A stretch of 64,000 bases of DNA from Nitrospirota bacterium (GTDB taxonomy: Bacteria; Nitrospirota; UBA9217), in contig CAWIYV010000011.1 in assembly GCA_963840455.1 (NCBI GenBank), forward strand, positions 352,001 through 416,000, written 5' to 3'. The position numbers and the translations under genes are program-made. The notes below the pieces were generated by a model that saw only the letters and a list, made by a program, of their open reading frames with translations, made no database searches and was not told where the DNA came from. This document shows positions 6,004 through 35,590 of the stretch, piece after piece; position 1 is the stretch's first letter; the number at the start of each line of letters is the position of its first letter.

Positions 6004-6053
6004 ACATGGCCTCCCCGCTTGATAAGTTACCAGACTATAGCATAGTCCTATCA

Positions 6054-6071
6054 CTGACGCAATGGTGTCAG
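6054..6071. promoter_or_regulatory. Palindromic operator 2, CTGACG-N6-TGTCAG
   Basis: Between the WYL gene and the divergent ORF; minus-strand TATAGT at 6034-6039, again 14 nt away. Confidence 0.65.
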
Positions 6072-6115
6072 TAGGCAAATGATAGAGTGGTCAATAACAT
6101 CTGGAGGGAATACAC

Positions 6116-7697: not shown

Positions 7698-7860
7698 TAT
7701 CAGAAGACCATTAAGTCCTTACAAAACCAGTCCGTAACCCATTGAATTAACTATTGCCGAAAAATCATCTAAAAAACTAAAGTTCTTACATTTTCGCGCT
7801 GCATACACTAATGTTGTCAAATTCGCAGACAATTAAGTCCTTACTATTTTACAGCAGAAA
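7698..7860 (+). repeat. Tn7-like left end 2 (TAT terminus)
   Basis: TATCAGAAG-ACCATTAAGTCC ... GCAGACAATTAAGTCC; collinear and homologous with left end 1; preceded by CAAGG. Confidence 0.8.
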
Positions 7861-10100: not shown

Positions 10101-10205
10101 TATCGGGAAGACAATTAAGTCCTTACGAAACCAGTCCGTAACCCATCGATTTTACTATAGCCGAAAAATCACCCGAAAAGATAAGGTTCTTACATTTTCG
10201 CCCTA
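10101..10205 (+). repeat. Tn7-like left end 3 (truncated copy of left end 2)
   Basis: TATCGGGAAG-ACAATTAAGTCCTTACGAAACCAGTCCGTAACCC...GTTCTTACATTTTCG closely matches 7698-7800. Confidence 0.75.
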
Positions 10206-15920: not shown

Positions 15921-15933
15921 TTGCCATCCCTCA

Positions 15934-17650: not shown

Positions 17651-19201
17651 TCAATCTTTTACTTCGATCAGTCCGGCCGATGCTAATGCGTTGACGGCAT
17701 TAGCACCACCGCCTTTTTGTACTACCTCTGCAAGGCTGTCCCCTCCGCTGACACATGGTCCTTTGTCTTTGGCCGTCGCATCCAAGACCATACGAACTGC
17801 ACGCTCAGATGTAAGATCCGGATATATGTCAAATAGCGTGCCCAGAATCTCTTGAGCCTGATCTTCGTCATATTTCATCGCAACCAAAGCACAAGCAGCA
17901 CTCATGCGTTCGTATTCCTGGTCTCTTTTCTTAGCACTCGCCTCTAGCTTCCCTAATTTGGCATCGACATCGACTTGCTTGGACAGATCTCTGATTCCTG
18001 CGTCAAGGAGATCCTGGTAATTGGCAATCGCCTTTCTATTTTTTTTCCTCAAGGCTTCAAGCATTGGTTCAACAAGTTTGAACTTATCATCGGCCACCTT
18101 GATGATTTGTTCGATTGAGATACCTGGTGCCTTTGTTCTAAGGGCGTCCAATTGCGTCAATTGAAATAATCTGACAACAAGAGCATGAATTCCCTGGGTG
18201 CGTTCTCTCATTACCGTTGACAGTTCATCGGTCAACGGCACAAACTTATCGGTCCATTGGTACTTCCAGAGTCCATTTAAAAAAAACTTCCATTCTTTTT
18301 TATCCAGACAATCCCAAATGCAGGTACCGTAATCGCCTACGCGCCTTGCTTCTCTGAATGTACCCGTCAGCATCTGCATGGCGCGAGGAGTTCCGATCGT
18401 TACAACAGGAATTTTCGCATTAGCAAACGCAACGAAAAAATTCAGCATCTTGCTTTGTCCAACACCACTTGCATCAAGCAAATTCTGAATTTCATCAATG
18501 ACCAATACACCTAAATTATGCATTTCAGTAATATTGGCCACACTCGATATTAATTCATCAATCGTTCCTTTCGAACTAACCTGCTTACGATACGAAGAAT
18601 CGAGAAGAGAGTCGAGTTTGCTGAGGATACCAAGAAGCAGCTGCTTGAGACTGCCGTCCAAAGGGCAGTCGGCTTTAAGCCAAACCACCTGGGTAAACTT
18701 GAACCTTGAGTGCATTAAGACCTGTGGCAAAAATGAAAGGGTTCTATCGGCCACGGTTGATTTTCCCACGCCCGAAGTTCCAAACAAAGCAAACGATGGC
18801 GCAGTTGATGGCCCTGACTCTTCAATTGCACAGATGTCGCCATTCATTGCTTTTCGATAGCGCTCTGTTCGACTTTTCCTATATGCAGGATCTATCGGAT
18901 TGCGAAATGCATAACCTGCTCGAACAATTAGATTAATCTTTTCGATAACCTCATAGTGAGATGGCAATGGCTCCAAGTAATTATTGATACGGGTTATAAG
19001 CAATGTTCGATCTGCTCTCGGCAAGAGTCTTTCTGCTGCGGATATCCTGGGAAAGCGACCAAATTTTTCCGAAATTTCATTTGCTTCTACGAATTGCGGC
19101 AGCGCCTCTAATAGGGGATTCCCTTTATGTTCCTTAATCGTAGACTCCTTATAAATGGCTTCCATCATTGCTGAAGGCATCTCGCTATCAGTCTTCTTCA
19201 T
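17651..19201 (-). CDS. tnsC: TnsC AAA+ ATPase
   Basis: GNPLLEALP; Walker A GTSGVGKST; Walker B VIDEIQ. Confidence 0.95.
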   Translation of the reverse strand: MKKTDSEMPSAMMEAIYKESTIKEHKGNPLLEALPQFVEANEISEKFGRFPRISAAERLLPRADRTLLITRINNYLEPLPSHYEVIEKINLIVRAGYAFRNPIDPAYRKSRTERYRKAMNGDICAIEESGPSTAPSFALFGTSGVGKSTVADRTLSFLPQVLMHSRFKFTQVVWLKADCPLDGSLKQLLLGILSKLDSLLDSSYRKQVSSKGTIDELISSVANITEMHNLGVLVIDEIQNLLDASGVGQSKMLNFFVAFANAKIPVVTIGTPRAMQMLTGTFREARRVGDYGTCIWDCLDKKEWKFFLNGLWKYQWTDKFVPLTDELSTVMRERTQGIHALVVRLFQLTQLDALRTKAPGISIEQIIKVADDKFKLVEPMLEALRKKNRKAIANYQDLLDAGIRDLSKQVDVDAKLGKLEASAKKRDQEYERMSAACALVAMKYDEDQAQEILGTLFDIYPDLTSERAVRMVLDATAKDKGPCVSGGDSLAEVVQKGGGANAVNALASAGLIEVKD

Positions 19202-21398
19202 TACTGTGTTACCTCCCTTTGTTTGCGTTTGGCTTCGAGTACTGCTAATTCTTCGTCGAGATAATCGTTCCCCCGTGATGCTGGCATTTCCTTCGTAATG
19301 TTGTGAACCGAGTCATTCGTCGCGTCGCTCAGATAGAATGTTTCAACCTTCCGCTGCAAGCTCTTTTCATCGGCTTTGTGCGTCCCGATATTTGCAGTCC
19401 TTTCAGATTTTGTAGCATTTGGATTACGAACGGCCTTTGTCTCCTTTGTTGCTTTGCTGACAATTTCCTCCGTGCGCTTGTCTTTTAAAAGTCTTTTGGC
19501 TTGCTTGCCATCTTCTTTCTCAACCTCGATTCTTTTCTTGTCTAAATCGAGTTCTTCTTCCTCGAATAAGGAAACGCCCAGAAGGTCGCTGCTGCTGTCA
19601 AGTAACCGACAAACCTCGAAGCCTTTTTCCATTTTGGGGTCATGAGCGTAAAGAATACCCAGATTCCGCGGATCATATGAGACATCAATTGTCCAAGTCT
19701 CTTTGCGGGCCTTAGCAAACCACTCTTCGTGAATTGCGGTATCACATGAATAGTAGGCTTTCTTGAAGTTGATGCCCTTCGCAGTGACTCTTGCTGTATC
19801 TCGTGGCATAACGTTAAGTCTTACATTATCGAGTGTCAGTCTTCTCAATTTACCGCTTCGATTCTGTATACCCCACTCCCAGAGATCCAGAGGACATGCT
19901 GTTAACCCCTCTGTGATCATTTCTGCTGGCAGTTTAAGCCCCTCAATCGTTTCTTCATTATGTTCTAGAACCGCCAAAATCACCAATTGTGTAAATTCGT
20001 ACAGATTTAATGTTGCTTTTAGCCGGTAGTCTTCTGCACCCCGCTCATTAAAGTCTTTCTCAACATAGCCGGGTGCAAATGGTCGGAATTTTGCCGGCAC
20101 AATACCAAATCTGCGTTCGACCAGAGCTTTTAAATCGGCCCTGCCTGGACTTGCATTTTCGATATCAATTTTGAGATTTTCTACGATATTTTGACCGAGG
20201 TCCACGCTCATAAGTTCGCCCCGATCTCCCATAAGGCGTCTAGGGGCATCTTGAGAGGGCCATTCATCAGCCTCAATATCTAGGTCATATTGACGGCAGA
20301 ACTCGACCTTGTCCATGACCATGTTCGTGAGCGCCATCATTGCTCCAACCCATGATGGACCTTCAAAACCGACATAAATGCCAGTTATCAGTCTACTGAA
20401 CACATCAATAACAAAATAGATAACTGGTCTTCCGACTATCCTTCTCCGGTCCTTGCTCGAGACCAAGTAAATATCCGCAATAGTAGCATCCACTTGGAAT
20501 CTATCTCCTGGGCCTTGGACATCGCCGTCAGCTCTCCCCGTTATCGGACGCTCATTCTTATCCCAGTTCCTCTGACCATGCCTTCGTCTCCGCTTCTTGC
20601 CAAATGGAAATGTCTTGCTGATGTAATACTGCAACTGCCTTAGTGATGGTTTCTTGTCATTATCGATCTGATAATCTATAATTTTGCCCTTATCATCTTT
20701 GATAGCCTTTGAGAAGAAAATGCGCACCATTCTGTCGTACGCGTCTTTCAAAGTAAACTTTTTCTTTCTCAACCAGAATTCGGCGCCTTGCTTGATCGCC
20801 TTTGTTATGTAATCACCGACTATGTTTACCCCTGTTCTCGTCTTATCCTTCCTAGGCGCCCCCAATTTTACGTCCTCTCTTACCCGACGCACTCGATCGG
20901 GATCCTTTATCGTGCCGCACTTATGATAATCGGGACGGAGCGCCTGATATGTCATGCCGCGCTTCCAATAGCGCCTTAACATGTCAACGATCGTGTCATA
21001 TGAACTGTTAACTTCATTCATTCTTTGGCGTATCAAATTCTTGCGAGAGCTTTTTATGAGGATTAGGCTCTCATTATCGCCATTGATTAATGGTTCGATC
21101 AATTCATATCGTTGCCGGTGCATCGCTTCGTTTTTGGGATTTGCCTTCCCAACCATAAAGCAGTCCCACGGATCCTCAGGCTCAATGAATAACGACCATG
21201 CTCCTGGTTCAATTGGGTTTGCAAATCACCTCTTGATAATTTAAAGGGCCATGAATGGTCATCGATCCGGCAAAGCCATATTGTTGAGCTGAAGGAATCT
21301 ATCGAAACGACTCGTAGGAGAACCTTATTGTTGCTGTCACTCAAGTACTTATCTAGTAGCAACATCCGAACAACTATTAATTTGCCATTATCCTTCAT
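19201..21398 (-). pseudogene. tnsB: TnsB DDE transposase, frameshifted near 21187
   Basis: GPGDRFQVDAT, DRGE and KALVERRF in ORF 19201..21156. The N-terminus lies in another frame (21099..21431); adding one base restores GRYSIEPEDPW. Confidence 0.9.
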
Positions 21399-22221
21399 GA
21401 TTAAATGCCCCTTTCGCGAGTTCAAACTCACTTATTGGCAGGTCAGAAAGTCTTGATAAGTTCAGATTCGTTAAAATTCGTTTGCACCAAAGAAGGCGAC
21501 GAAGAGCTGCCAGAGAGTCACCTTGCGGGTAGCCACTCTGTTCGTCAATAACACCACAAGCCTTTTTTATAGGAATATAAGGTTCAACTGACTTAATGAG
21601 TGGAATTTCCCGACAGAGTGTTTCATCAATAATCGAATTTTGCCGATTAATAAGATTTGTCTCCTTATCGAATATCCAAGCGAGATTAGATGTAAACTGA
21701 TTCTTTAATTGCTGATCAGTAAGTATCTTCCATTCCACTTTACGGCATTCCCAGAATCGGCGTTCTATCTCGAGTTTCTCGAGTGTGCGTTTATCACTCA
21801 GACTTTCAGCTTGCTTGACAGTCCGAGCGATCAGCTCTGTCCCGTTTTTTGTCTTTACGGTAAGGAGGAAATCAATGGTTAATACCCAGAGAGCTCCGCT
21901 TAGTGGGTCAACTGGATATTTAACACCACAGCGTGCAGCTATTTCTACTGTTTCTCGCCGATCAAGAAGCGGGTACTGTTCACGTATGTCGATGACCCTA
22001 TCATCCCATTCAAAGAGAAGAAATGCATAATACTCATTGTCAGAAAGGAGGTGATGTTGCCTGCTTGCCTTAATGCCAAATGGTCGATGCACGCGGCCTA
22101 ACGAAGGGACATCGGAAACCTTATGCCAAGGTTTGTAGTTCGGACCATCCCCTTTGCCTCGACCTTCCCGGATAAAGCGACGAATGCGCGCTTCAGTCAT
22201 ACTGTATTTTTTTCTCGCCAT
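21388..22221 (-). CDS. tnsA: TnsA endonuclease
   Basis: EGRGKG.GPNYKPW, HHLLSDNE, DIREQYPLL, TIDFLLT, EKLEIERRFW. Confidence 0.95.
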   Translation of the reverse strand: MARKKYSMTEARIRRFIREGRGKGDGPNYKPWHKVSDVPSLGRVHRPFGIKASRQHHLLSDNEYYAFLLFEWDDRVIDIREQYPLLDRRETVEIAARCGVKYPVDPLSGALWVLTIDFLLTVKTKNGTELIARTVKQAESLSDKRTLEKLEIERRFWECRKVEWKILTDQQLKNQFTSNLAWIFDKETNLINRQNSIIDETLCREIPLIKSVEPYIPIKKACGVIDEQSGYPQGDSLAALRRLLWCKRILTNLNLSRLSDLPISEFELAKGAFNHEG

Positions 22222-23767: not shown

Positions 23768-26476
23768 ATGGTCAAAAGGCAGGCACCTTCTCCCGACAAT
23801 TCTGAATTTCTGACTCGCCGCAAGTTGATCGACCCTAAACTTAACGCGGCCGGGTGGAAAGTCTTGCCTTTTGACTCTTCTCTCTCTCTTGAAAATTCCA
23901 ATAATTGTGCCATTTCTGAATACCCAACAGACAAGGGTCCCGCGGATTATGCACTTTGCGTTGATGGCAAGATTTCAGGATGATCGAGAGCAAGAGATTT
24001 TCTCTCGGTCCGCGGAATATTATGACTACAGGCTGAACGATGTTCTCACGGCGCTACTCAAATCCCTTCAATTTCCCAATAGGTTCCATGTTTCCTTTTT
24101 CTACTTTCTCAAACTCCATCGGTCTGGCATAGTGACGTCCAGCATATCGTTGAATCATTCTCAGCAGTGGACCCATCGTCACCTCCATCTGCTCTACAGG
24201 AGACTTCGAAGCGAATTTTCAACTCGGACCTGTTCACACTTCCGAAGCTCTCGATGGACAACAGCTTCCTACGGCCCTATCAAGTCCATGCAATTCGGCC
24301 ATCGAAAGGCCATCAAAAGTCAAAACAGCCGAGAATGCTCGTGGCCATCGCTCTGAGTACGGGAGAAACCTTTACCTGGTGGATGGGGATTAATTTTGAT
24401 GAAGAATCCGGGTGCTGCCAAGAGGATTCGATTCCTGGCAGATCGGCGTGTCATTGGCGGCCCAGGCAGTCCGTTCATTTGCATCCTTCGAAGCCGAACC
24501 AGGGCTCCAAGTTCGATAGCATTTACGAGGTGTACAGTCAGCGGTTTCAGACTGGGGATTTTGATGAAAGGTGAGAAGTTCGATCCCAAGGTGTTGCCTA
24601 ATAGCTATCTGACCGATCCACAGCCAGGTCATGCCTTTGTATATGTGTCCACGATCCAGCGCATGACCATCAACCTCTTTGGAAGCGGGGGTACATTCGG
24701 AGATGAAGAGGAAAAAGACGACGAAGCATCACAGATAGAGATCCCAAATCATGCGTTTGACGTAATCATTGCAGATGAATGTCACCGAGGATATACCGCT
24801 CAACAGGTAGCTGTCTGGCGCGATACATTGGACCACTTCGATGCCATCAAGATCGGCCTGACAGCCACACCCGCCGCACATACGACGACTTATTTCCGAG
24901 ATGTCGTTTATCGTTATGAATACGATGGCTGGGCCGTGCGCGAAGGCTACCTCGTTGACTACGATGCCGTGACAATTCGTTCTAATATCCGCATGGGTGG
25001 CGCCTTCCTCAAGGAAGGCGAACTCGTAGGTGTTGTTGACACGTCTACCGGCGCTGAACAAATGGACTATCTTGAAGATGAGCGTCAATACCAGACTTCA
25101 GATATAGAAGCTCGGGTCACGGTTCCAGATTCGAACCGTAAAATACTGCAAGAGCTCAAGAAGTACACGGACGAGCATGAGGCCACCTATGGCCGCTTTC
25201 CAAAAACGTTAATCTTCGCGGCAAATGACCTACAGCATACCTCTCACGCTGATCAGCTTGTGGAGACTGCGCGTACCATCTTTGGTCGTGGCGAAGCGTT
25301 CGCTACCAAGATCACCGGAATGGTTGACCGTCCACTTCAGCGTATCCGTGAGTTCCGAAATAGGCCGCAGCCCTGCATTGCTGTCACCGTGGACCTTCTT
25401 TCAACAGGGGTAGATATCCCGGATCCGAGTTTATCGTCCTTCTTCGGCCGGTTAAGTCCAGAATACTATTTGAGCAGATGCTCGGCCGGGGCACAAGGAA
25501 GGGTGTTGCCTATCCGGATAAATCGCATTTCACCGTGTTCGATTGTTTCGATGGTACTCTGCTCGACTACTTCCGGAATTCGACATCCATAACAGCAGCC
25601 TTGCCGGCTCCCAAAACCCGCTCCATCATCGATATCATCGATGACATCTGGCAAAACAAGGACAGGGAGTATAATACTCGCTGTCGTCAAGCGCCTGCAG
25701 CGAATCGAAAAGGAAATGTCCGCAAAAGCTAGATATGATTTTGCCGCCTTTATTCCTGAAGGCGATATGGGGCGTTTTGCTGAGGCGTTGACCGGAAACC
25801 AACAAGCAATTTGCCGAAACTATGAATATCCTTCGCAATCCTGTATTTCAGGATCTCCTCATTAATTATCGACGTGCGGAGAGAACGTTCGTTAAAGGGT
25901 ACGAAGCTCAGGATGTGGTTACGAGTGATCGCCTGATTCACGCCCCTGGCGGCGTTAAATACAAACCGGAAGACTATTTGTCTGCATTCGCTCAATATAT
26001 AGTAGAGCATCGCGATGACAGACCAGGCTGTGCAGATACTTCTGAACCGTCCAAAAGATTGGAATGTTAGCGCTCTTGCAGAACTTCGGCAGAAGCTAGC
26101 AGCAGCACCCATGCGTTTCAGCGAAAAGGATCTACAAAAGGCACATGCCATGACCTTTCATAAGGAGATGGTAGATATCATTTCCATGGTAAAGCATGCC
26201 GCAAAAGCGGAAGAGAGCCTATACACATCCCATGAACGAGTAGAGCGGGCTCTCATGCGGATAACCGGCAAGCAAACCTTTACCTCTGATCAGCTGGTAT
26301 GGTTAGAACGAATACGTATCCATTTGGAACAGAACCTCTCGATTGATAAGATAGATTTTGACGATCAGCCGACTTTTTCTGGATATGGCGGCTGGAGCAA
26401 GGCAAATCGAATATTTAACGACAAACTTGGAGCAATGCTGACCAAGATTACGAAGCTGTTGCTGCATAAGGATTAA
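23768..26476 (+). pseudogene. hsdR: Type I restriction subunit R, multiply frameshifted
   Basis: Collinear fragments: TRRKLIDPKL..GW..ADYAL, LRPYQ, IADECHRG, GLTATP, MLGRGTR and an EcoEI-R-like C-terminus. Confidence 0.85.
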
Positions 26477-26478
26477 CA

Positions 26479-27933
26479 ATGAGTGATATCGTCAACAAGC
26501 TCTGGGGTTTCTGCCATACACTGCGCCACGATGGCATCGATTACGGCGATTACATCGAACAGCTTACTTACCTGTTGTTCCTGAAAATGGCTGATGAGCG
26601 CGATATTAACCTTTCCAAAACAGTCTGGATCAATGAAAAGGGTAAAAAAGTCATAACTGATTGCGGATGGCCGGCCTTGCGAGATAAGTCCGGAACAGCC
26701 TTGACCGATCATTTTGTCGATGTTCTCCGTGCTCTTGGTAAGCAGACAGGAATGCTGGGCGACATTTTCAGTCAATCCATGTCTCGTTTCAATAATCCAG
26801 TAAATCTCAAAAAATTGATCGGAATGATCGATGATGAAGAATGGTCTTCCATGGATGTGGACATAAAAGGGGCAGCGTTCGAGGGCCTTCTTGAAAGAGC
26901 GGCAAGCGAGGGAAAGAAGGGGGCGGGACAATACTTTACGCCACGTGTCCTCATTCAATCAATCGTACGTGTCATGAAGCCCGATCCGCGAGGAAAGTCG
27001 GATTTCAAAATCAGTGATCCTGCCTGTGGAACTGGAGGATTTCTCGTCGTTTCCTATGAGTGGCTTGTCGAAGCGTCTAAGGGTGTTTTTGATCGGAGCG
27101 AGGCGAAGCGCATACGAAGCAAAACGTACTTCGGCCAGGACCTTGTGCCTCGTCCCCGCAGACTTGCACTAATGAATCTCTTTCTACACGGAGTCGAGCC
27201 ACACATCTATCTGGGTGATACGATCTATACACCACCTCGCGCTGAGCGATATGACGTGATCCTCACAAATCCGCCCTTCGGCACCAAAGGTGCGAACCAG
27301 GCACCTGACAGAGAAGACTTCACCATTGAAACGAGTAACAAGCAGCTCAACTTCGTTCAACATGTCATGAACATTCTTAAACCCGGTGGTCGCGCAGCAA
27401 TAGTGTTGCCGGACAACTGTCTCTTTGAAGATAAAGCGGGCGAGGTCTTTGAAATCTTGATGAAGGACTGCAACTTACACACGGTCCTGCGTCTGCCGCG
27501 TGGTACGTTCACACCTTACAGCCAGGGAGTGAAGGCAAACGTCATCTTCTTCCAAAAAGGATTACCCACGGAAGATACCTGGATATTTGACGCTCGCTCC
27601 AATGTGCCAGGCATTACAAAGAAAGACCGTCCGCTTTCGCCACTTCACTTTGCGGAGTTTGAGAAGTGCTATGGCAAAGACCCAAATGGACGGAGTAAAA
27701 GGATCGACCTCGGGGAAGAAGGTCGGTTCCGGAAGTTCTCTATATATGACATCAAAAAGCGTGATTACAAGCTCGATGTTACCTGGCTTAAGGATGAATC
27801 GCTTGACGACAGTGACGAATTGCCAGAGCCTCAGGAATTGGCGGAAGAAGCAATAACGGAACTTGAAGCGATTGTTGACGATTTGCGAGTAATCGTGACG
27901 TTGACGGAAAAGGAAGAGGGCGTGAAGAAATGA
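26479..27933 (+). CDS. hsdM: Type I RM methyltransferase subunit
   Basis: GAGQYFTPR, DPACGTGGF, NPPF. Confidence 0.95.
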   Translation: MSDIVNKLWGFCHTLRHDGIDYGDYIEQLTYLLFLKMADERDINLSKTVWINEKGKKVITDCGWPALRDKSGTALTDHFVDVLRALGKQTGMLGDIFSQSMSRFNNPVNLKKLIGMIDDEEWSSMDVDIKGAAFEGLLERAASEGKKGAGQYFTPRVLIQSIVRVMKPDPRGKSDFKISDPACGTGGFLVVSYEWLVEASKGVFDRSEAKRIRSKTYFGQDLVPRPRRLALMNLFLHGVEPHIYLGDTIYTPPRAERYDVILTNPPFGTKGANQAPDREDFTIETSNKQLNFVQHVMNILKPGGRAAIVLPDNCLFEDKAGEVFEILMKDCNLHTVLRLPRGTFTPYSQGVKANVIFFQKGLPTEDTWIFDARSNVPGITKKDRPLSPLHFAEFEKCYGKDPNGRSKRIDLGEEGRFRKFSIYDIKKRDYKLDVTWLKDESLDDSDELPEPQELAEEAITELEAIVDDLRVIVTLTEKEEGVKK

Positions 27934-29312
27934 TTGATGATCTTCCTAAAGGCTGGGCTAGCGCCAAAATCGAGCAGCTTTTCGATTTCAAATACGGCAA
28001 GGGGCTCCCGCAGGAGAAACGTAATATAAATGGTGCGGTCAAAGTGTTTGGCTCCAATGGCGTAGTGGGTGTTCACACACACGCGGTTACGAATGGGCCA
28101 ACGATAATCGTTGGCCGGAAGGGCTCGGTGGGCGAAGTTCACTTGTCATCTGAAAAGTGCTGGCCTATCGATACTACATATTATATTGATGCATTTCCTG
28201 CAGAAATGTCTCCAAATTATTGGACACTTTTCCTTAGGTCACTTCGACTCGGTCAGCAGGAAAAGTCTTCTGCAATCCCTGGTATTAGCCGTAGTGACAT
28301 TTATGACATCTATGTGCCGATTCCCCCGCTGAGTGAGCAGCGTCGTATCGAGGCAAAACTGGCGGAGATTCTTGAAAAAGGCGGTGACTGCCAAAAACGG
28401 CTGGAAAAAATTCCGGCAATTCTTAAACGCTTTCGCAAATCTGTCCTTGCCTCTGCTTGCTCGGGCCGTCTTACGGCAGATTGGCGAGATAAGAATCCGT
28501 ACGTAAAGCCATACTCAATTAAGGGACAGCAAGATAGTTCGGAGGTACGCGACGACGAGGCGATCGATCCCTCAAGTTGGCGGATAACGCAACTTGGCAT
28601 TTTGACCACACTGATAACGAGTGGTTCTCGCGGGTGGGCGAAGTACTATTCTAAATCGGGTTCTATGTTCATTCGAGCGCAGAACATAAACTCCGACGTT
28701 CTCAATTTGGATGATATTGCCTTTGTTAAGCTACCTGCCCGCACAGAAGGATTGAGGACTAAAATCCAAAAGCACGATCTCCTCGTTACGATTAGTGGCG
28801 CTAACGTCACCAAGTCCGCACTCGTTGAAGAGTCGCCAAAGGATGCTTACGTGAGCCAACATGTGGCTTTAGTTCGGCTTTCCGATGTGCGTCTGAGCAA
28901 GCTCATCTATTTTTCGATCATTAGCCCTGCACACGGAAGGAAACAGCTACTTGCTGCTACTTATGGGCAAGGTAAACCCGGACTTAATTTAGACAACATT
29001 CGTGAAATGATTGTTTCAATTCCTCCTCTCAATGAACAACAGGAAATCGTCCGACGAGTAAACGAAATGTTTGCGTTAGCCGACCAAATCGAGGCCCGCT
29101 ATGCAAAGTCCAAAGCATATGTGGACAAAATCTCTCAATCAATTCTCGCGAAAGCTTTTCGTGGTGAACTTGTACCGCAGGATCCGAATGATGAACCCGC
29201 ACATATTCTGCTGCAACGCATTCATACAATAAAAAATAGCCTTCATAACCTCTCTCCAAAGCGATCTGCGAAAAAAGGCCGTAAGCCAGCCAAGCGTTTC
29301 CAGATTTCTTAA
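27930..29312 (+). CDS. hsdS: Type I RM specificity subunit
   Basis: Two target-recognition domains with PPLSEQRRI and PPLNEQQEIV repeats; AFRGELVPQDP. Confidence 0.95.
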   Translation: MIDDLPKGWASAKIEQLFDFKYGKGLPQEKRNINGAVKVFGSNGVVGVHTHAVTNGPTIIVGRKGSVGEVHLSSEKCWPIDTTYYIDAFPAEMSPNYWTLFLRSLRLGQQEKSSAIPGISRSDIYDIYVPIPPLSEQRRIEAKLAEILEKGGDCQKRLEKIPAILKRFRKSVLASACSGRLTADWRDKNPYVKPYSIKGQQDSSEVRDDEAIDPSSWRITQLGILTTLITSGSRGWAKYYSKSGSMFIRAQNINSDVLNLDDIAFVKLPARTEGLRTKIQKHDLLVTISGANVTKSALVEESPKDAYVSQHVALVRLSDVRLSKLIYFSIISPAHGRKQLLAATYGQGKPGLNLDNIREMIVSIPPLNEQQEIVRRVNEMFALADQIEARYAKSKAYVDKISQSILAKAFRGELVPQDPNDEPAHILLQRIHTIKNSLHNLSPKRSAKKGRKPAKRFQIS

Positions 29313-29659
29313 TATTATTACCGGCCCCCCCCCAAACGCCACAATCACAAGAGCATCAACAATATCTAATAACAGGAATGGCCACCATGTTGTTGATTAA
29401 TATCATTTTTAACCCTTATTTTCAGCCAGTTACAAACTAAAACATTTTTCAACCGCGCCATTCAAGGATGAAATCCATGCATACCCACGAAGATCCCGTG
29501 AATACTGACTAAATATGGAGTCAAAATACACTTGACTCCACTATATATAGTGATATATTCAGCGTGATGGATTTATTCTTGTGGTTTGATCATTTTCAGC
29601 GCTGAACACGAACATTGGATAATAGCTGCAAAGGCAGACCCTATATATCACGATATGCC

Positions 29660-29739
29660 TTACGCATGCTGCGTAAAAAGTCCTTGACTCGAGGGACTTG
29701 AACTGGTATTGTAAGGATGGGATTACGCATATTGCGTAA
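29660..29739 (+). promoter_or_regulatory. Sigma70 promoter bracketed by two TTACGCA-N3-TGCGTAA operators
   Basis: Palindromes at 29660-29676 and 29723-29739; TTGACT (29684), 17 nt spacer, TATTGT (29707). Confidence 0.75.
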
Positions 29740-29752
29740 AAGGAGGTGTGCG

Positions 29753-30127
29753 ATGAAGTTCGGTCAGCTCTTGAAAAAGGCCCGGACTGGGGAGAAAAAA
29801 ACATTAAGGGAGGTTGCTGCCGCATCTGGACTTTCAATCAGTTTGGTATCAGACATAGAGCATGGCAGAAGAAGCGTATCCTCGTTGGAGGTTGTTGGGA
29901 AGATCGAAAAGTTCCTGAATATAACAGATGGATCTTTAGCAAAAGCAGCTCAGAAGGAAAAGAGTCTCGATGTGCCACCCGACGCAAAGGAGCTATTTTG
30001 GAAACGGGGACCTGAACTGAGCATGGCACTCTTGAGAGCATCAACCGAACTTTCAGAAGAGGCGATACACAAGCTTATCGATGAAATGCAGAAGAATGCT
30101 CAGCAGGCACAGGCAGAGGAGGATTAG
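29753..30127 (+). CDS. Xre-family HTH repressor (ImmR/CapH-like)
   Basis: FGQLLKKAR...TLREVA..SGLSISLVSDIEHGRR; AGGAGG RBS. Confidence 0.85.
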   Translation: MKFGQLLKKARTGEKKTLREVAAASGLSISLVSDIEHGRRSVSSLEVVGKIEKFLNITDGSLAKAAQKEKSLDVPPDAKELFWKRGPELSMALLRASTELSEEAIHKLIDEMQKNAQQAQAEED

Positions 30128-30130
30128 TTG

Positions 30131-30727
30131 ATGTCGGTCTCGGAACTTGCTTTCCCCGCGATGCGTGGATCTCGAATAGACAACCTTGCATTGGATCTCA
30201 TAAGAACGATCCAGCCGGACGTCCTCGCGGGAAAGTGTTTTTTTGACGTAGAGCGATTCGTGGATGTGCACCTTGAGGAGATGACAGGCATTACACCAGA
30301 CTATAGGCGTGGACTTCCCGATGGTATTTATGGATACACGCACACAGCGGAAAATAGCATGGTGATCAATTCAGACCTTCTCGAAAACCCCTTCGGCGAC
30401 AACGAACGATTTTATCGATCAACAGTAGCGCATGAGGTAGGACACTGCATCTTACACGTTCCAATATTACGACGGCAAAAGAGAGATAAGATTTTTACAG
30501 AGAACAAGAAAGAGGAAAAGGTTGCACTCTACCGTAAGACCCATTTTCCACTGTATCAGAATCCTGAGTGGCAGGCATGGCGCTTTGCGGGGGCTCTATT
30601 AATGCCCGAGGTTGTAATTAGATCATTGCGCGGCCAGGGAGCGAGTATACAGGAAGTCGCAACTCATTTTAATGTGAACGGGAGTTTTGTGGAGAGCAGA
30701 ATGAAAGCGTTAAAAATGACCACATAA
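30131..30727 (+). CDS. ImmA/IrrE-family metallopeptidase (CapP-like)
   Basis: RSTVAHEVGH (HExxH); EWQA..FAGALLMP. Confidence 0.9.
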   Translation: MSVSELAFPAMRGSRIDNLALDLIRTIQPDVLAGKCFFDVERFVDVHLEEMTGITPDYRRGLPDGIYGYTHTAENSMVINSDLLENPFGDNERFYRSTVAHEVGHCILHVPILRRQKRDKIFTENKKEEKVALYRKTHFPLYQNPEWQAWRFAGALLMPEVVIRSLRGQGASIQEVATHFNVNGSFVESRMKALKMTT

Positions 30728-31081
30728 AAAAAGCGTCAAGCCGTTGTTAGAGCAACGCTTGACGCTACCCCCTCTAGGGAACGAGGGGTGTCTTGACCCG
30801 GGTGGGCCAGACCACATAAGAAAGATACCATTCCTTTCGCCCACCTGTCAAGACCAATAATCTGTTTCCCAGAAAGCTGGTGATGGCCTTATGGCCAAAT
30901 CCGGATCCACGGTCGTATTCCGTCCGTGGATAATCGCTAAGGGTAGGCGCTACGCGTCCGCCTGCAGCAAGGGCTTTTCCCATTCAGGTACAGAAGAATC
31001 CTGATGGGACGGGGGAGGTCTGTGTCTCCCCCTATTCCAAGAAAGCTCGGCATTGGGAATGCTGAGCGATAGGAGATCACT

Positions 31082-31261
31082 ATGGCTAAAAATCCGCCCT
31101 ATGGAGACGGACACCGGCACGGAGCAGTAACAGGAAGGTCTCAAACGCTGAACACAAAGACCAATCTTTGGACGAAGCGCGATACTGAGACAGGTCGTTT
31201 TATCAACCAGAAGTCTGACCCGAAACCCTTCAAAGGGGTTCGGAAAGAAGGAGGCAAATAA
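31082..31261 (+). CDS. Small basic protein (59 aa; not in the ORF track)
   Basis: AGGAG RBS; MAKNPPYGDGHRHGAVTGRSQ...WTKRDTETGRF...KPFKGVRKE; stop 1 nt before the next ATG. Confidence 0.75.
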   Translation: MAKNPPYGDGHRHGAVTGRSQTLNTKTNLWTKRDTETGRFINQKSDPKPFKGVRKEGGK

Positions 31262-31262
31262 C

Positions 31263-31916
31263 ATGGAAAGGGACAACAAGCCCGGGCACAATCACGAGGA
31301 CCACATCACTATCATCGTGAATCAGGTCTCTCACCACATTTCGAGCAGCACCGTAACAGCAGCCTATCTCCGCGAACTTGCGGGAGCCGGAGCTGACTAT
31401 GAGGTATGGAAGGTAATCAAATCTCCTGATCCGGAAGGACAGCTGCCTGTCGATGATATGCAGGTCAAGGACAGCATTGAGGTAAAGAGCGGGGACAAGT
31501 TCAGGGTCGTCCCTCCGGGAACCTTCGGAACGGTGGCTACATTGCCGGCTGGCCAGCTTTCTCGGGAGTTGGAGCAACTCCATGAACAGGGCTGTGAAAC
31601 CGAAGTGCATGAAGACAGCAGCCTCACGATTGTCATATTCAAAAAGTTCCCTCTTCCTAAGGGGTATAACATGGAGGCAACCGATGTTCTTATAAAGGTT
31701 CCTTTGTCATACCCGAATGGACAACTGGACATGTTCTGGACCGAACCGAACCTTCGACTCGCAAGCGCCAATGGCCAGACAGCGACATCGGTCGAGCAGA
31801 TCCTTGGCAGACAATGGTTGCGGTTCTCGTGGCATCCCCAGAAATGGAACCCGGGCAGGGACAACATACTGACCTTCGTTGAGTTCATCAACAGGAGGCT
31901 CGCCCAACTGAAATGA
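31263..31916 (+). CDS. Ubiquitin-like (multi-ubiquitin type) domain fused to a prokaryotic E2-like domain
   Basis: ITIIVN...LRELAG...IEVKSGDKFRVVPPGTFG, then FPLPKGYN...VP.SYP..LDMFW..P...WLRFSWH...WNPG.D. Confidence 0.8.
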   Translation: MERDNKPGHNHEDHITIIVNQVSHHISSSTVTAAYLRELAGAGADYEVWKVIKSPDPEGQLPVDDMQVKDSIEVKSGDKFRVVPPGTFGTVATLPAGQLSRELEQLHEQGCETEVHEDSSLTIVIFKKFPLPKGYNMEATDVLIKVPLSYPNGQLDMFWTEPNLRLASANGQTATSVEQILGRQWLRFSWHPQKWNPGRDNILTFVEFINRRLAQLK

Positions 31917-33313
31917 GCAAAGAATATACCATACGAATCTCTGAACAAGATCTCAAGCTGTGCAGGTCGGCCGTCATGGCCGACCTGCCTAAAGAGAGCG
32001 CAGTATTTCTCCTGGCGGGCAGAAAAACGATAGGCGATCGAGAGGAACTTCTGATGCGGCGTGTCGTGGTAATCCCGAAATCCGAGTACCGCATTCAGAG
32101 CGATGTCCACCTCGATATTTCACCCCAAGCTATCAATGGCCTGGTAGCCCTATGTGAACAAAACGGCCTCGGCGCGATACTCTGTCACAGCCACCCGACA
32201 GACTCGCCGTACTCGCCGTCAGATGACAAAGGCGAAAAACGCATCGCCGAGACGATCTGGAAGTTTGTGCCAGAAGCACCTGTCGGGTCCTTGTTGATTT
32301 CTCCCGGTCAATACCGCGCCCGCATTTGGCTTCCTGGCCGAGCCCATTCAGCTGTCCAAGGCATTACCGTTGTTGGCAGACACATTCACCGGATCGGTCT
32401 CAACGGAAGCAGCAAAACAATGTCCTTCAATCGCGGTCTTTATGACAGACAGGTCCTCGCATTCGGAGACCAGGGACAGGAGGCAGTGTCGAAGACGAAG
32501 ATTGCCATTGTCGGCATGGGAGGTACTGGTTCGCCAACGGCAGAGCAGGCCGTCAGACTCGGCGTTAAAGATATCCTTCTCATCGATCCCGATACTCTCA
32601 GTGATTCGAATATAACCCGGGTATACGGCAGCTTTTACCGGGACATCACTCGACCGTGGTGGAAAAAGCTGCTGCCCATCAACGGCAAGCAGTCCAAGGT
32701 AGATATGATAGCTCGCCACCTCAGAAGTATTGCACCGGACGCAAAAATAGTCGCTTTGCAGGAGAACATCGTTACATCTTCTGCCGCCCGGGCATTACTA
32801 GACAGAGATGTCATATTCTGCTGCACAGATGAGCACTGGGGCAGATCGGTCGTGAACCAGATCGCGCATCAGTACATGATTCCTGTCATCAACATAGGAG
32901 TTCAGATCGACTCAAAGAACGGCGTGATACAAGGGGCCTCTGGATCCATCCACATTATCCGGCCGGATGCTCCTTGCCTCTGGTGCTATGAATTCCTCAG
33001 CGGTAAGCGTATTCGGGCAGAGAGCCTTCCGCCGGAACAAAGAGATTCTGAGCTGAGGGAAGGCTACGTAGAGAACATTGACGCGAAGGCGCCATCTGTT
33101 GTGTCCTTGACAACAACGCTTTCCGGTCATGCAGTAACAGCCTTCCTGCAGCTTGTCACTGATTTTAGGGGAGCGGCTGGAGGCTTTCACAGTCTGAACT
33201 ACAGCATTATGGAAGGAATCGTCAGGCGATGTTCAACAACGACTGATGAGCACTGCATCTGTAAATCGGCCAAAGGTTATGGAGACATGAAAGCCCTCCC
33301 CACTGTGGCATAA
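31913..33313 (+). CDS. JAB/MPN metallopeptidase + ThiF/E1 adenylation fusion
   Basis: E...HSHP...SPSD; YDRQ, GMGGTGS, IDPD....SN..R, CTD, CLWC and C-x-C zinc ligands. Confidence 0.9.
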   Translation: MSKEYTIRISEQDLKLCRSAVMADLPKESAVFLLAGRKTIGDREELLMRRVVVIPKSEYRIQSDVHLDISPQAINGLVALCEQNGLGAILCHSHPTDSPYSPSDDKGEKRIAETIWKFVPEAPVGSLLISPGQYRARIWLPGRAHSAVQGITVVGRHIHRIGLNGSSKTMSFNRGLYDRQVLAFGDQGQEAVSKTKIAIVGMGGTGSPTAEQAVRLGVKDILLIDPDTLSDSNITRVYGSFYRDITRPWWKKLLPINGKQSKVDMIARHLRSIAPDAKIVALQENIVTSSAARALLDRDVIFCCTDEHWGRSVVNQIAHQYMIPVINIGVQIDSKNGVIQGASGSIHIIRPDAPCLWCYEFLSGKRIRAESLPPEQRDSELREGYVENIDAKAPSVVSLTTTLSGHAVTAFLQLVTDFRGAAGGFHSLNYSIMEGIVRRCSTTTDEHCICKSAKGYGDMKALPTVA

Positions 33314-33350
33314 GCAGCATACTCATGCTATGCCATTTCAAGGCAAAGAG

Positions 33351-33380
33351 AGGGAGGGGCGTTGACGCCTCTCCCTTTTT
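33351..33380 (+). terminator. Intrinsic terminator
   Basis: AGGGAGGGGCGT-TG-ACGCCTCTCCCT followed by a T run. Confidence 0.7.
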
Positions 33381-33410
33381 ATTACCAGAACTCAACTAAG
33401 CAAAACATAG

Positions 33411-33514
33411 GAACTCAATTGTCTATGCCAATATAATCGGATACCGTCTTTAGACGACTTAATTGTTTAACGATGACTTAATTGTATAAGTTACGACTTA
33501 ATTGTTTCTTTATA
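33411..33514 (-). repeat. Tn7-like right end (TAT terminus)
   Basis: GACTTAATTGT at 33456, 33475 and 33495, plus a degenerate copy near 33412; reverse strand begins TATAAAGAA-ACAATTAAGTC. Confidence 0.9.
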
Positions 33515-33519
33515 GAAGG
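33515..33519 (+). repeat. 5-bp target-site duplication GAAGG (right copy)
   Basis: Matches 301-305. Confidence 0.85.
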
Positions 33520-33525
33520 CGTATC

Positions 33526-35157
33526 TCACATCTCGCACACCAGGTCCTCGATCTCCTTCGAGAAGGTCTCATAGTTCGGAGTGTAATCGATGGGACACTC
33601 GATGACGACGACCTTGTGGAGGTCGAAGGCCTGCTTGAGCACCACGGCGAGGTCGTCCCCCTTCTTCACGGTCATGCCGACCGCCCCGTGGCTCTCGGCG
33701 AACCGGGCGAAATCAGGATTGGTATAGTCCAGCCCGAAGCTCCGGAACCCCATGTTCTCCTGCTTCCACTTGATGAACCCGAAGGCGTTGTCGTTCAGGA
33801 TCAGCACGACGACCGGGATGTTCAACCGCACCGCGGTCTCGAGCTCCTGGGCGTTCATCATGAATCCGCCGTCGCCCACCACGGCAAGCACCCTGCGTTC
33901 GGGATGGACCAGCTTGGCGGCAAGGGCCGCAGGCAGGCCCGCACCCATGGTCGCGAGGGCGTTGTCGAGGATGAAGGTGTTCGGCTTGTAGGTGCGGTAG
34001 AGCCGCGAGAACCAGAGTTTGTAGATGCCGTTGTCCAGGGTGACGATGTCGTCCTCGCCGAGGGCCTTCCGCACGTGGCAGACGATCTCCTGCGGCTGGG
34101 GCGGGAAGGTCGTCTCGCAGGTCGCCGCGAGCTTCTCGGTCAGGAACAACCGGAGGTCCGCGAACAGCGTGTCGTCCCTCCGCGTCACCTTCGAGGCGAG
34201 CTGCCGGAGCGAGACCGAGACATCGCCGACCACTTCGATGGCGGGGTCGTAGTAGCGGTCCACATCAGCCTCGACGAAATCGATATGGATGATCTTCTTG
34301 TCAAGTCCCGGGTTCCAGATGAAGGGCGGGTACTCCACGATGCTGTACCCCACGGTGATGATCACATCTGCGCGGTCGATGCCGCAGTTCACGTAGTCCC
34401 GCTTGTGGATGCCCGTTGCGTAGAGGCTGTAAGAAGACTCGTCGGAGAGCACGCCCTTCCCCATCTGCGTATGCACCACGTAGATGCCCGTCCGCTCCAC
34501 GAATTCGCGAAGCTCCTTCCAGATGAGCTTCCGGTTCGCCCCGGCGGATAGGATGAGCAGTGGATGGCGCGACGCGTTGATGAGCTCCGCTGCACCTTCG
34601 ATCGTCTTGGTGTCAGGGTCCGGCCTGCGGCTGTGGCCCGGCTTCTGGACCTGTGCGTCCGTGCTGCTTCCGGCCACGTCCTCGGGAAGTTCGATGTGGA
34701 CCGCGCCCGGCCGCTCTGCCTGGGCGTGCTTGAAGGCGTTCCGGAGCACCGTCGGAATGGTCCCCGGGTCGATGATCGACGTTGCATACTTCGTGACGGG
34801 CCGCATCAGGCTGACCACGTCGATAAGCTGGAAGCAGGCCTGCCAGTTGTCGCGCACCGCCTTCTGGCCGGTGATGGCGATGAGCGGCGCGCCGATGAGC
34901 TGGGCGTGGGCGATGCCCGTCACCAGGTTCGTGGCGCCCGGCCCGAGCGTGGAAAAGCAGACGCCCGCCTTGCCGGTGAGCCGGCCGTAGGTGGCGGCCA
35001 TGAACGCCGCCGCCTGCTCGTGGCGCGTGACGACGAGCTTGATGTGCGACGTGCGGAGCGACTCGAGGAAATCGAGGTTCTCCTCGCCCGGCAGGCCGAA
35101 GATGTACTCGACGCCCTCCTCTTCCAGCTGTCTGACGAACAGGTCCGATGCTTTCAT
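33526..35157 (-). CDS. ThDP-dependent acetolactate-synthase-like enzyme, possibly 2-oxoglutarate decarboxylase
   Basis: GVEYIFGLPGEENL, RHEQ, GDGG...NDN; lies directly after SSADH, citrate synthase and aconitase. Confidence 0.85.
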   Translation of the reverse strand: MKASDLFVRQLEEEGVEYIFGLPGEENLDFLESLRTSHIKLVVTRHEQAAAFMAATYGRLTGKAGVCFSTLGPGATNLVTGIAHAQLIGAPLIAITGQKAVRDNWQACFQLIDVVSLMRPVTKYATSIIDPGTIPTVLRNAFKHAQAERPGAVHIELPEDVAGSSTDAQVQKPGHSRRPDPDTKTIEGAAELINASRHPLLILSAGANRKLIWKELREFVERTGIYVVHTQMGKGVLSDESSYSLYATGIHKRDYVNCGIDRADVIITVGYSIVEYPPFIWNPGLDKKIIHIDFVEADVDRYYDPAIEVVGDVSVSLRQLASKVTRRDDTLFADLRLFLTEKLAATCETTFPPQPQEIVCHVRKALGEDDIVTLDNGIYKLWFSRLYRTYKPNTFILDNALATMGAGLPAALAAKLVHPERRVLAVVGDGGFMMNAQELETAVRLNIPVVVLILNDNAFGFIKWKQENMGFRSFGLDYTNPDFARFAESHGAVGMTVKKGDDLAVVLKQAFDLHKVVVIECPIDYTPNYETFSKEIEDLVCEM

Positions 35158-35180
35158 GAACGCTCCTGAAATGTTAATTC

Positions 35181-35590
35181 GCCACGGAGGCACAGAGACA
35201 CAGAGAAAAGCATAAAAAAACCTTCGACACTGATCAACACTGATAACGGCTATTATAACGGCGGATCAATCCTCGGTATCATATCAAAATCAGTCTTTAT
35301 TCTGTTTTATATTTGCTGCAGTCCTTTAGATGCTCCTTCAGCATTCCTCTTGCAACACGCTTTTTACAGTGGGGACAGGGTGCGCAGCACGGGACTGGAT
35401 GTTCCAGCAAGGCTCTTCCTTCAATGTCTCTGCTTTGATTTTCATCCGTGTCCATCCGTGTCCACTCAGGGGTTGTCCCCGTGTCACCCCGTCACCGTGT
35501 CCCCGTGTCGGTCTTTCTTCGCGTCTCTCCGTGTCTCCCCGTCCCCGCCTGTCCCCGAGCGAGTCTATCGGGGATGTCTCCGTGTCAGCT
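35181..35590. repeat. Intergenic cluster of short-period repeats
   Basis: CACAGAG, ACACTGAT, ATCCGTG and CCGTGTC(A/C/T)CC units. Confidence 0.6.

Follow-up and report, generated by a model that had tools for sequence, protein, structure and literature searches.

The question raised by one locus of a Nitrospirota bacterium is what two adjacent fusion genes, one joining a ubiquitin-like protein (Ubl) to an E2 and the other joining a JAB protease domain to an E1, may be doing at the end of a transposon, given that both the E2 and the E1 appear devoid of the usual catalytic cysteines, and whether they add anything to the bacterial Ubl conjugation operons already described under the name of Bub. 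The locus lies in a stretch of 64,000 nucleotides (nt) of contig CAWIYV010000011.1, referred to here as the window, to whose positions all coordinates refer, and related loci are numbered with the prefix L. An earlier note on this DNA had proposed a new polyprotein variant with a built-in activation switch. We find that the locus is probably a Bub-like (formerly '6E') Ubl conjugation module, carried as cargo by a Tn7-like element and operating through the cascade proposed below. The new point is a different one: this module belongs to a clade without a recognizable BubE (DUF6527) gene, such a gene being found in none of the 56 loci of this clade that could be evaluated.

The core of the locus consists of three genes on the forward strand, whose products divide into the following parts:

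31082–31261, + strand: 59-amino-acid (aa) basic protein, pI 10.5, PADLOC family PDC-S38 / phrog_12550, first gene of the unit
31263–31529, + strand: Ubl part of BubAB, residues 1–89, a single beta-grasp domain ending in PPGTFG, the codon of G89 being 31527–31529
31530–31916, + strand: E2 part of BubAB, residues 90–217, Prok-E2_E, with D156, S189 and H191 at the active site and no catalytic Cys
31913–32407, + strand: JAB part of BubCD, matched by phmmer to Citrobacter BubCD, with JAMM residues E28, H92/H94, S101 and D104
32435–33313, + strand: E1 adenylation domain of BubCD, approximately residues 175–466, with the nucleotide loop G201–S207, R236, D306 and the crossover loop with Y385

As to the first of the two fusion proteins, the open reading frame (ORF) of BubAB (31263–31916, + strand) encodes 217 aa. 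The PPGTFG segment occupies residues 84–89, and the frame runs on through T90 into an E2 with DMFW at 156–159 and RFSWH at 187–191, while the only Cys of the entire protein, C111, is not conserved. The earlier note had read a Ubl continuing in frame into an E2 with Ser and no Cys in its active-site segment, and this reading is borne out. The Pfam model Prok-E2_E (PF14462) matches residues 102–214 (6.9e-30), and an AlphaFold2 model of the whole protein (mean pLDDT 87.6) presents a beta-grasp fold at residues 15–83 and an E2-like domain at 96–214, with pLDDT below 50 at residues 90–94 only, between the two confident domains. The structural matches of the Ubl domain in Foldseek are to bacterial multi-ubiquitin proteins (8u38, 9d5b, 9cd2) and to BubA (9ea8_B), and the E2 domain resembles Citrobacter BubB both in structure (Foldseek E 2.3e-7, TM 0.81, root-mean-square deviation 1.8 Å, 117 columns) and in sequence (9eae_C, phmmer 4.3e-6). 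D156, S189 and H191 align with D299, S333 and H335 of the latter and are invariant in 31 aligned BubAB/BubB sequences. The GTFG motif is likewise conserved, being found by pattern in 82 of 93 loci.

The second protein, BubCD (31913–33313, + strand, 466 aa), starts with an ATG overlapping the stop codon of the 217-aa frame (ATGA). It matches Citrobacter BubCD (9ea4_A) over residues 26–420, thus over both domains (phmmer 3.4e-39), and the Pfam model ThiF matches its E1 domain at 7.2e-34. An alignment of 12 BubCD proteins shows no variation at E28, H92/H94, S101, D104, R236 and Y385. The zinc cysteines are C355 and C358 (CLWC, 355–358) and C448 and C450 (CIC, 448–450), the crossover loop carries EGY at 383–385, and no Cys occurs between residues 359 and 439, all as the earlier note had described. 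The E1 is of a single adenylation domain, with no Cys domain. The NCBIfam models include nothing specific for the operon proteins; the E1 domain scores with the ThiF (1.3e-19) and MoeB (1.6e-14) models, both far below their cut-offs, and also with the PADLOC Cap2-type 'E1-E2' models (best 7.9e-16). The ThiF and MoeB scores, along with the retention of the zinc cysteines, could be taken to suggest a sulfur-carrier pair of the ThiS/ThiF or MoaD/MoeB kind, devoted to cofactor biosynthesis. However, E2 and JAB domains are fused to the partners here, rhodanese and sulfurtransferase genes are missing, the setting is that of a mobile element with a stress-type regulator in control, and the closest solved relative conjugates proteins; a sulfur-carrier function appears extremely unlikely.

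The relative in question, from Citrobacter, corresponds to the window proteins in the catalytic positions as follows:

JAB residues: Citrobacter E28, H91/H93 and D104; window E28, H92/H94 and D104
adenylation Arg: Citrobacter R227; window R236
crossover-loop Tyr: Citrobacter Y370; window Y385
E2 residues: Citrobacter D299, S333 and H335; window D156, S189 and H191

In their preprint, Ye, Gong, Chambers and Corbett (bioRxiv 10.1101/2024.11.21.623953; Ye et al. below) define Type I Bub as the set of BubAB (Ubl-E2), BubCD (JAB-E1) and BubE (DUF6527). According to the same text, Citrobacter BubCD cuts BubAB directly after a conserved Gly, G229, as established with purified proteins, E28A/D104A mutants and Edman sequencing, and this cleavage proceeds without any trigger, while Y370F and S333A/H335A abolish conjugation, the Ubl being carried by Tyr and Ser oxyesters (Ye et al.). 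The proposal of the earlier note, of a JAB cut after the Gly of GTFG that would free both the Ubl and the E2, followed by Cys-free oxyester transfer, is well supported by this homology and by the split relatives described below. In substance, its central inference thus proves correct, but it is not new, having been published for Citrobacter: what the note took for a new polyprotein variant, a BubAB fusion cleaved by BubCD, is the standard Type I architecture (bioRxiv 10.1101/2024.11.21.623953). The Bub systems are the only known Ubl cascades running on Tyr/Ser oxyesters in place of Cys thioesters, and to this chemistry, oxyester and self-processing alike, the locus adds nothing new. Its remaining value lies in the BubE-less clade, in the processing site mapped by comparison and in the small gene at the head of the operon.

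As to the processing site, fused or split organization was called on 93 loci, with the motif not found by pattern in 11 of them, resulting in 19 fused and 63 split loci, a count of the fusion that the earlier note had called for. In the split loci, the Ubl frame ends exactly after GTFG in 9 cases, one codon later in 19, two codons later in 19, and three to nine codons later in 16. As split Ubl genes stop at GTFG or one to nine codons past it, G89 should represent the mature end of the Ubl, and this is independent of the Citrobacter experiment. Judged by comparison of genes, such ends are classically those of Ubl precursors that are processed back to the Gly, the predicted JAB cleavage at G89|T90 has strong comparative support, and the split genes provide an experiment-free map of the Ubl processing site. 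A search at the protein level gives 88 of 114 clusters as fused, 25 as E2-only and one as intermediate, a proportion different from that of the loci, this search being blind to stand-alone Ubl genes and counting clusters, not loci. Among the closest loci, L002, L003 and L037–L043 (63–69% identity) are fused, and L104 (68% over the best segment) is split. By the locus count, fusion is the minority form in the BubE-less clade.

That the split form is in the majority (63 of 82 classifiable loci) might be thought to indicate that the in-frame fusion in the window is an assembly or sequencing error. Against this stand the 88 protein clusters in which both halves are in one chain, the 19 fused loci, including those closest to the window, and the contigs of about 90% identity, originating from four sequencing runs, that cross the codons of G89 and T90 with no indel (X1 record 3, X4 record 21), so that an error, the outcome that would have undone the earlier note, has next to no likelihood. 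The contigs in question belong to relatives, not to the organism of the window, and X1 to X3 gave identical tables, possibly representing one data set; altogether, 11 sequencing runs are listed, with shares of at most 0.09 each and no RNA run among them. The X4 contigs match the window only at 30867–33315 and diverge on both sides, suggesting that the three-gene unit, together with a leader of about 215 nt, moves as a cassette.

The absence of BubE is supported by two collections of loci. One originates from a scan of species-representative genomes, which gave 16 loci, in all 16 of which BubCD directly follows BubAB. The other originates from a metagenome scan, in which 80 of 141 matches were kept, 44 of them having a complete BubCD and at least 450 nt of downstream sequence. 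A DUF6527 gene is found directly downstream only in the three most distant of the genome loci (L015–L017, 30–34% identity). It is absent from the 13 closer genome loci (41–66% identity), 12 of which have sufficient downstream DNA, L014 ending about 190 nt past BubCD; and it is absent from the 44 metagenome loci, in each of which up to three ORFs within 1.3 kb were examined. The evaluable loci thus amount to 12 from genomes plus 44 from metagenomes. A hidden Markov model (HMM) built from the three BubE sequences and applied to six-frame translations of 115 loci matched those three and a single unlinked copy (L036) only. In the window's own genome, rated as 100% complete, PF20137 is absent (best E 0.18, below the cut-off), and between the BubCD stop codon and the transposon end there is nothing but a terminator. 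Genomes of relatives are in agreement, with DUF6527 in none of five in one set and in one of five in the other (nine of ten without), the sole match being on another contig. The unlinked copy, L036, is a DUF6527 gene (E 3.3e-27) on a different contig of the genome whose L009 locus is a BubE-less operon; a second Bub operon, of the classic kind, is presumably present there, and the two kinds would then coexist in one genome.

The published Bub operons were drawn from the DUF6527-containing operons of Millman et al. (2022), as stated in Table S1 of Ye et al. and in the companion preprint. As that set was collected via DUF6527, a bubE gene in every Bub operon, as published, is a consequence of the selection. 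A catalogue built in this way leaves out a whole clade, represented by at least 13 species-representative loci and by the 80 metagenome matches kept of 141. A literature search for later work on BubE-less Bub operons, which did not extend to the final version of Ye et al., led only to the two 2024 preprints and a regulator paper of 2026. With no BubE, either the JAB domain must also remove conjugates or conjugation is not reversed, and the clade thus presents a natural test of the separate roles of BubE and JAB.

Could the window operon be instead a decayed, non-functional classic Type I Bub operon, its bubE lost in a rearrangement of the transposon end or of the cargo? Indeed, no further cargo gene lies between the operon and the transposon end, and BubE is missing from both the locus and the genome. 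However, the absence is a property of the entire clade, as documented by the 56 evaluable loci, and the three distant loci at 30–34% identity all have BubE directly downstream. All the catalytic residues are intact, a strong terminator follows the BubCD stop codon, and where the classic E2 motif is QRWSRH, that of this clade is W[LR]RFSWH. Decay would predict DUF6527 remnants downstream of close relatives, or BubE-less operons scattered among BubE-containing ones, and neither is seen. We consider decay very unlikely, and the preferred reading remains that of a conjugation module belonging to a BubE-less clade. In five loci of the clade, a small HNH endonuclease gene adjoins the BubE-less operon, downstream in L006, L050, L061 and L079, and upstream in L014, and this gene could be an accessory or an effector in part of the clade.

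The three-gene unit is preceded by two genes of a regulatory type, making up five genes on the + strand of the ORF list in the order HTH, M78 peptidase, 59-aa protein, BubAB and BubCD. The features of this region and of the operon end are these:

29541–29656, + strand: candidate operator/promoter region 5' of the HTH gene, with boxes CTATATATAGTGATAT and CTATATATCACGATAT forming an inverted repeat (14-nt arms, 93% complementary)
29717–30127, + strand: XRE-type helix-turn-helix (HTH) regulator, 136 aa, CapH-like (Pfam HTH_3 5.9e-9; PADLOC capH 5.3e-9)
30128–30727, + strand: M78 (ImmA/IrrE-type) zinc peptidase, 199 aa, with HEVGH, CapP-like but short (Pfam Peptidase_M78 2.5e-9; PADLOC capP 1.3e-10)
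30732–30766, + strand: perfect 10-nt inverted repeat, a hairpin directly 3' of the peptidase stop codon, with no U tract (fold of 30726–30800, -34.4 kcal/mol, z = -5.43)
33347–33385, + strand: intrinsic terminator closing the operon, with a stem of 15 pairs and then UUUUUAUU (fold of 33314–33400, -34 kcal/mol, z = -5.66, 0 of 200 shuffles as good)

The HTH and M78 genes are adjacent to each other and next to the operon, matching the layout of the CapH/CapP pairs, and the earlier note had recognized both them and the terminator at the transposon end. What it had called a two-gene system departs from the published type in two respects, as bubE is absent and an extra gene, for the 59-aa protein, is present at the head. 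With that gene at 31082–31261, the transcription unit is of three genes. Of the 13 close genome loci, eight have a Peptidase_M78 gene within 2.6 kb, and in a set of 544 Bub operons CapH plus CapP are reported for 31% (Ye et al., bioRxiv 10.1101/2024.11.21.623953). The built-in activation switch, which the earlier note had seen in the JAB cleavage, remains conjectural, and the purified Citrobacter proteins cleave with no trigger; control at the level of transcription, by the upstream HTH/peptidase pair, seems the more likely.

The boxes at 29541–29656 could possibly be an operator or a promoter region for the HTH gene. Promoter-like sites are predicted in the same stretch (29532–29712), at 29532–29559, which the first box overlaps, and at 29684–29712. 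The hairpin at 30732–30766 is possibly an attenuator or a protein site. Separating the peptidase gene from the 59-aa gene is an unusually long spacer (30728–31081) of 355 nt, compared to 91 nt in L003. A second hairpin, GGGGAG...CTCCCC, is noticeable by eye in this spacer near 31013–31033, and in related contigs 63 nt of the spacer (30998–31062) are swapped for 69 other letters, with 17 nt missing at 30889. An Rfam scan of 29300–33600 (E up to 0.1) gave no match. A simple pattern scan for terminators gave no + strand site after BubCD, the terminator being shown by folding instead.

The genes and sites pointing to a transposon are the following:

33454–33505, + strand: three direct copies of the 13-nt motif ACGACTTAATTGT, a Tn7-like end, presumed TnsB sites
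21388–22221, - strand: TnsA (Pfam Tn7_TnsA-like_N)
19201–21156, - strand: TnsB (Pfam Mu-transpos_C)
17651–19201, - strand: TnsC (Pfam TniB/AAA_22)
16171–17640 and 14199–15941, - strand: two TnsD/TniQ genes (Pfam TnsD and TniQ, twice)

Inverted copies of ACGACTTAATTGT are found at 315–449, and the window has nine matches to the motif versus 0.82 expected. From the tns genes and the opposed end motifs, a Tn7-like element of about 33 kb is recognized at 300–33525. Beyond 34000 the G+C content is higher, about 0.6 compared with about 0.5 before, and this shift, with the end motifs and the tns genes, makes the operon the last cargo of the element. Fewer than 25 nt separate the right end of the element from the stop codon (33526–33528) of a thiamine pyrophosphate (TPP)-enzyme gene (33526–35193, - strand), a site recalling the insertion of Tn7 downstream of a conserved gene. 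Extra copies of the motif at 7707–7841 and at 10111 may mark a second or nested element.

Other genes of the element include a type I restriction-modification (R-M) system directly upstream of the locus (hsdM 26479–27933, hsdS 27930–29312), in which hsdR (23871–26476) seems broken into at least three ORFs: 23871–24356, 24396–25592 (ResIII) and 26015–26476 (EcoEI_R_C). A WYL+WCX regulator gene (5035–6078, - strand; CapW/BrxR-like by domains) adjoins genes of the metallo-beta-lactamase fold / RMMBL at 3338–4577. Two large genes for secreted-type proteins resembling cell-wall hydrolases are present in the region of low G+C, at 8209–9477 (Laminin_G_3 and Peptidase_M23) and at 10762–12651 (CHAP, CarboxypepD_reg and DUF4189).

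With these parts at hand, the following cascade can be proposed. The XRE-type repressor and the ImmA/IrrE-type peptidase would probably, judging by their families and by published work on CapH/CapP, silence the unit as long as there is no DNA damage or infection, upon either of which the unit at 31082–33313 would be expressed, producing the 59-aa protein, BubAB and BubCD. The JAB domain of BubCD would cut BubAB at G89|T90, resulting in a Ubl of 89 residues ending in Gly and an E2 of 128 residues. The E1 domain would adenylate G89, Tyr385 would take over the Ubl as an oxyester and hand it on to Ser189 of the E2, where His191 and Asp156 would assist, and the E2 would then transfer the Ubl to lysines of targets. 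The steps from cleavage to lysine have been followed by experiment in the Citrobacter homologue only, and for the window they are deduced from the conserved residues and the comparative data.

A number of observations weigh against this reading, in part or in whole. Among the four Pfam models with which the earlier note had proposed to search, Prok-E2_E and ThiF recognize their domains convincingly (see above), but the Multi_ubiq match to the Ubl (E 0.024) and the Prok-JAB match (E 0.0034) are weak and below the cut-offs, and because of these scores the Ubl and JAB calls depend on the predicted structure and on alignment to Citrobacter. The PADLOC capP profile aligned over positions 37–141 of 242 only, to a peptidase of 199 aa, and the latter may be closer to a plain ImmA-type peptidase than to CapP. 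The promoter scan predicted no + strand site in the 355-nt spacer (30728–31081) before the 59-aa gene. For the whole clade, the proteins of the window included, the chemistry is a prediction. The published Bub operons (Ye et al.) all carry BubE, which strongly lowered the amount of conjugates in cells, and a BubE-less system may behave differently from them. Finally, Ye et al. found no Bub operon that protected E. coli from phage, and a more recent paper (EMBO J 2026, PMC13373217) repeats that phage protection by Bub has not been shown.

The last point leads to the rival explanation that deserves most weight, that the module does conjugate but serves in a response to DNA damage or general stress, or benefits the transposon, and not in phage defence. 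In addition to the missing demonstration of protection, the regulators found with Bub operons respond to DNA damage, and the authors themselves, in Ye et al., in the companion preprint and in the EMBO J 2026 paper (bioRxiv 10.1101/2024.11.21.623953; PMC13373217), raise stress response as an alternative. The neighbours, however, are of the defence type: the type I R-M system in the window, and CBASS, Druantia DruA, McrBC and toxin-antitoxin genes near the relatives; and the 59-aa gene heads CBASS and Pycsar operons as well. We view a stress or transposon role as possible but rather unlikely, while the genomic context makes a phage-defence role for the operon plausible.

As to the 59-aa protein at the head of the unit, its gene has an AGGAG upstream of the ATG and a stop codon 1 nt before the ATG of bubAB. 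It matches PDC-S38 of PADLOC over essentially the full length (5.1e-32, residues 1–56 on profile positions 1–56 of 57) and phrog_12550 at 3.1e-18, and 611 related clusters are found at E up to 1e-3, typically of 57 aa and 60–80% identical across phyla, with a C-terminal 'PFKGVRKE' that is nearly invariant. Neither Pfam nor NCBIfam gave a match (E up to 1), the clusters matched in the ESM Atlas were all unnamed, the model (a small three-stranded sheet, pLDDT 71) gave no Foldseek match at E up to 0.001, and a literature search found no paper naming PDC-S38. One relative, L024, matched 2C_adapt at 3.2e-5; the window copy did not, and this match was not relied on.

The family is present in 18 of 401 sampled genomes of the phylum, that of the window included. 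BubAB/BubCD adjoin it in only one (L025) of the 17 other carriers, and so it is not Bub-specific, and a role as a Bub-specific partner or target was rejected as the default reading. Instead, it precedes, on the same strand, genes of diverse systems. One example is a Pycsar effector (L021, L023). Another example is patatin plus CD-NTase (L022, L030). A third is a DNA methylase (L032, L033). In L027 it precedes Multi_ubiq plus DUF6791-ThiF and in L029 DUF6791-ThiF, with a divergent HTH/M78 pair flanking both, this being another operon of the Ubl-E1 type. The regulators next to PDC-S38 are HTH/M78 (L019, L027, L028, L029), LexA-like (L030, L032), WYL (L023) and STAS/GHKL-type (L021, L022, L031, L033), the latter resembling the CapK/CapS regulators (EMBO J 2026, PMC13373217). 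PDC-S38 thus separates DNA-damage regulators, of four kinds, from the gene that opens a CBASS, Pycsar, Ubl-E1 or methylase operon. Among the Bub relatives, it is restricted to the closest subclade: L002 (which probably represents the same site as L025), L003, L039, L041, L042 and L043. It is also present in 16 phage records at 60–68% identity, and in Streptococcus phage Javan642 and Staphylococcus phage phiSP119-3 it resides in the lysogeny/early-control region, on the strand of the repressor. Very conserved, and positioned at the junction of regulators and many defence operons as well as in prophage lysogeny modules, this family deserves a study of its own.

A bolder interpretation may be formulated from the above, to which we assign rather low odds. 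The BubE-less operons would represent a third, minimal type of Bub, made up of Ubl, E2 and JAB-E1, in which the JAB domain matures the Ubl and is the only possible eraser, or else tagging is irreversible, a type missed as a result of the collection via DUF6527. Separately, and just as tentatively, the 59-aa PDC-S38 protein would be a functional small effector or regulator common to many systems, its identity being 60–80% between this genome and prophages of Streptococcus and Staphylococcus.

Overall, how does the locus compare with the known systems? The closest is Type I Bub (6E.1) of Citrobacter sp. RHBSTW-00271 (PDB 9ea4, 9ea8, 9eae, 9eav). The two have in common the order of the Ubl-E2 and JAB-E1 fusions, the conserved Gly at the end of the Ubl, the Cys-free E2 with Ser, His and Asp, the Tyr in the E1 loop and the JAMM residues, and the window shares with Type I Bub at large the frequent CapH/CapP-type regulators and the location on mobile elements. 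They differ in that BubE/DUF6527 is absent from both the operon and the genome of the window, and in that the window Ubl has one beta-grasp domain, as opposed to three in Citrobacter, although a single domain is found in 40% of the published Bub Ubls (companion preprint). Identity to Citrobacter is only about 30%, and 25% for the E2 in the structural alignment. The E2 motif is RFSWH in the window versus RWSRH in Citrobacter. The zinc cysteines (CxxC...CxC) are kept in the window, whereas Citrobacter has other residues at the positions of the first pair, and the 59-aa head gene is present in the window but not in the Citrobacter operon. Type II Bub (6E.2; BubA, BubBD, BubE) shares the Cys-free Ubl pathway, the loop Tyr, the E2 Ser and the regulators, but has the E2 fused to the E1, no JAB and BubE present, while in the window the E2 is joined to the Ubl, the JAB to the E1, and BubE is absent.

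More remote systems share fewer of these features. Bil (BilABCD) also combines Ubl, E2, JAB and E1 in one defence-island operon with no E3, but as separate genes, with catalytic cysteines in both E1 and E2, thioesters, and a tandem-adenylation E1 with a Cys domain; by its Ser at the E2 site, its single-adenylation E1 and its lack of a Cys domain the window operon is not a Bil system, and the tagging of phage tail proteins shown for Bil does not apply to it. Type II CBASS, with Cap2 (E2-E1) and Cap3 (JAB), has in common the E1 model score, a JAB partner and CapH/CapP-type control; however, Cap2 conjugates the cyclase itself, not a Ubl, by Cys chemistry, and no cyclase or effector is found at the window operon. 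ThiF/ThiS and MoeB/MoaD share a homodimer-type E1 fold, a beta-grasp partner ending in Gly and the structural zinc cysteines, but involve no E2, JAB or protein conjugation and belong to a biosynthetic context. In conclusion, of the Type I Bub features tested, the window operon has the Ubl with its terminal Gly, the Ser-E2, the JAB-E1 fusion and the Cys-free Tyr loop, and differs from the published definition by the absence of bubE alone; as predicted from these genes, it works like the Type I Bub pathway, within the wider Prok-E2_E / JAB-E1 group.

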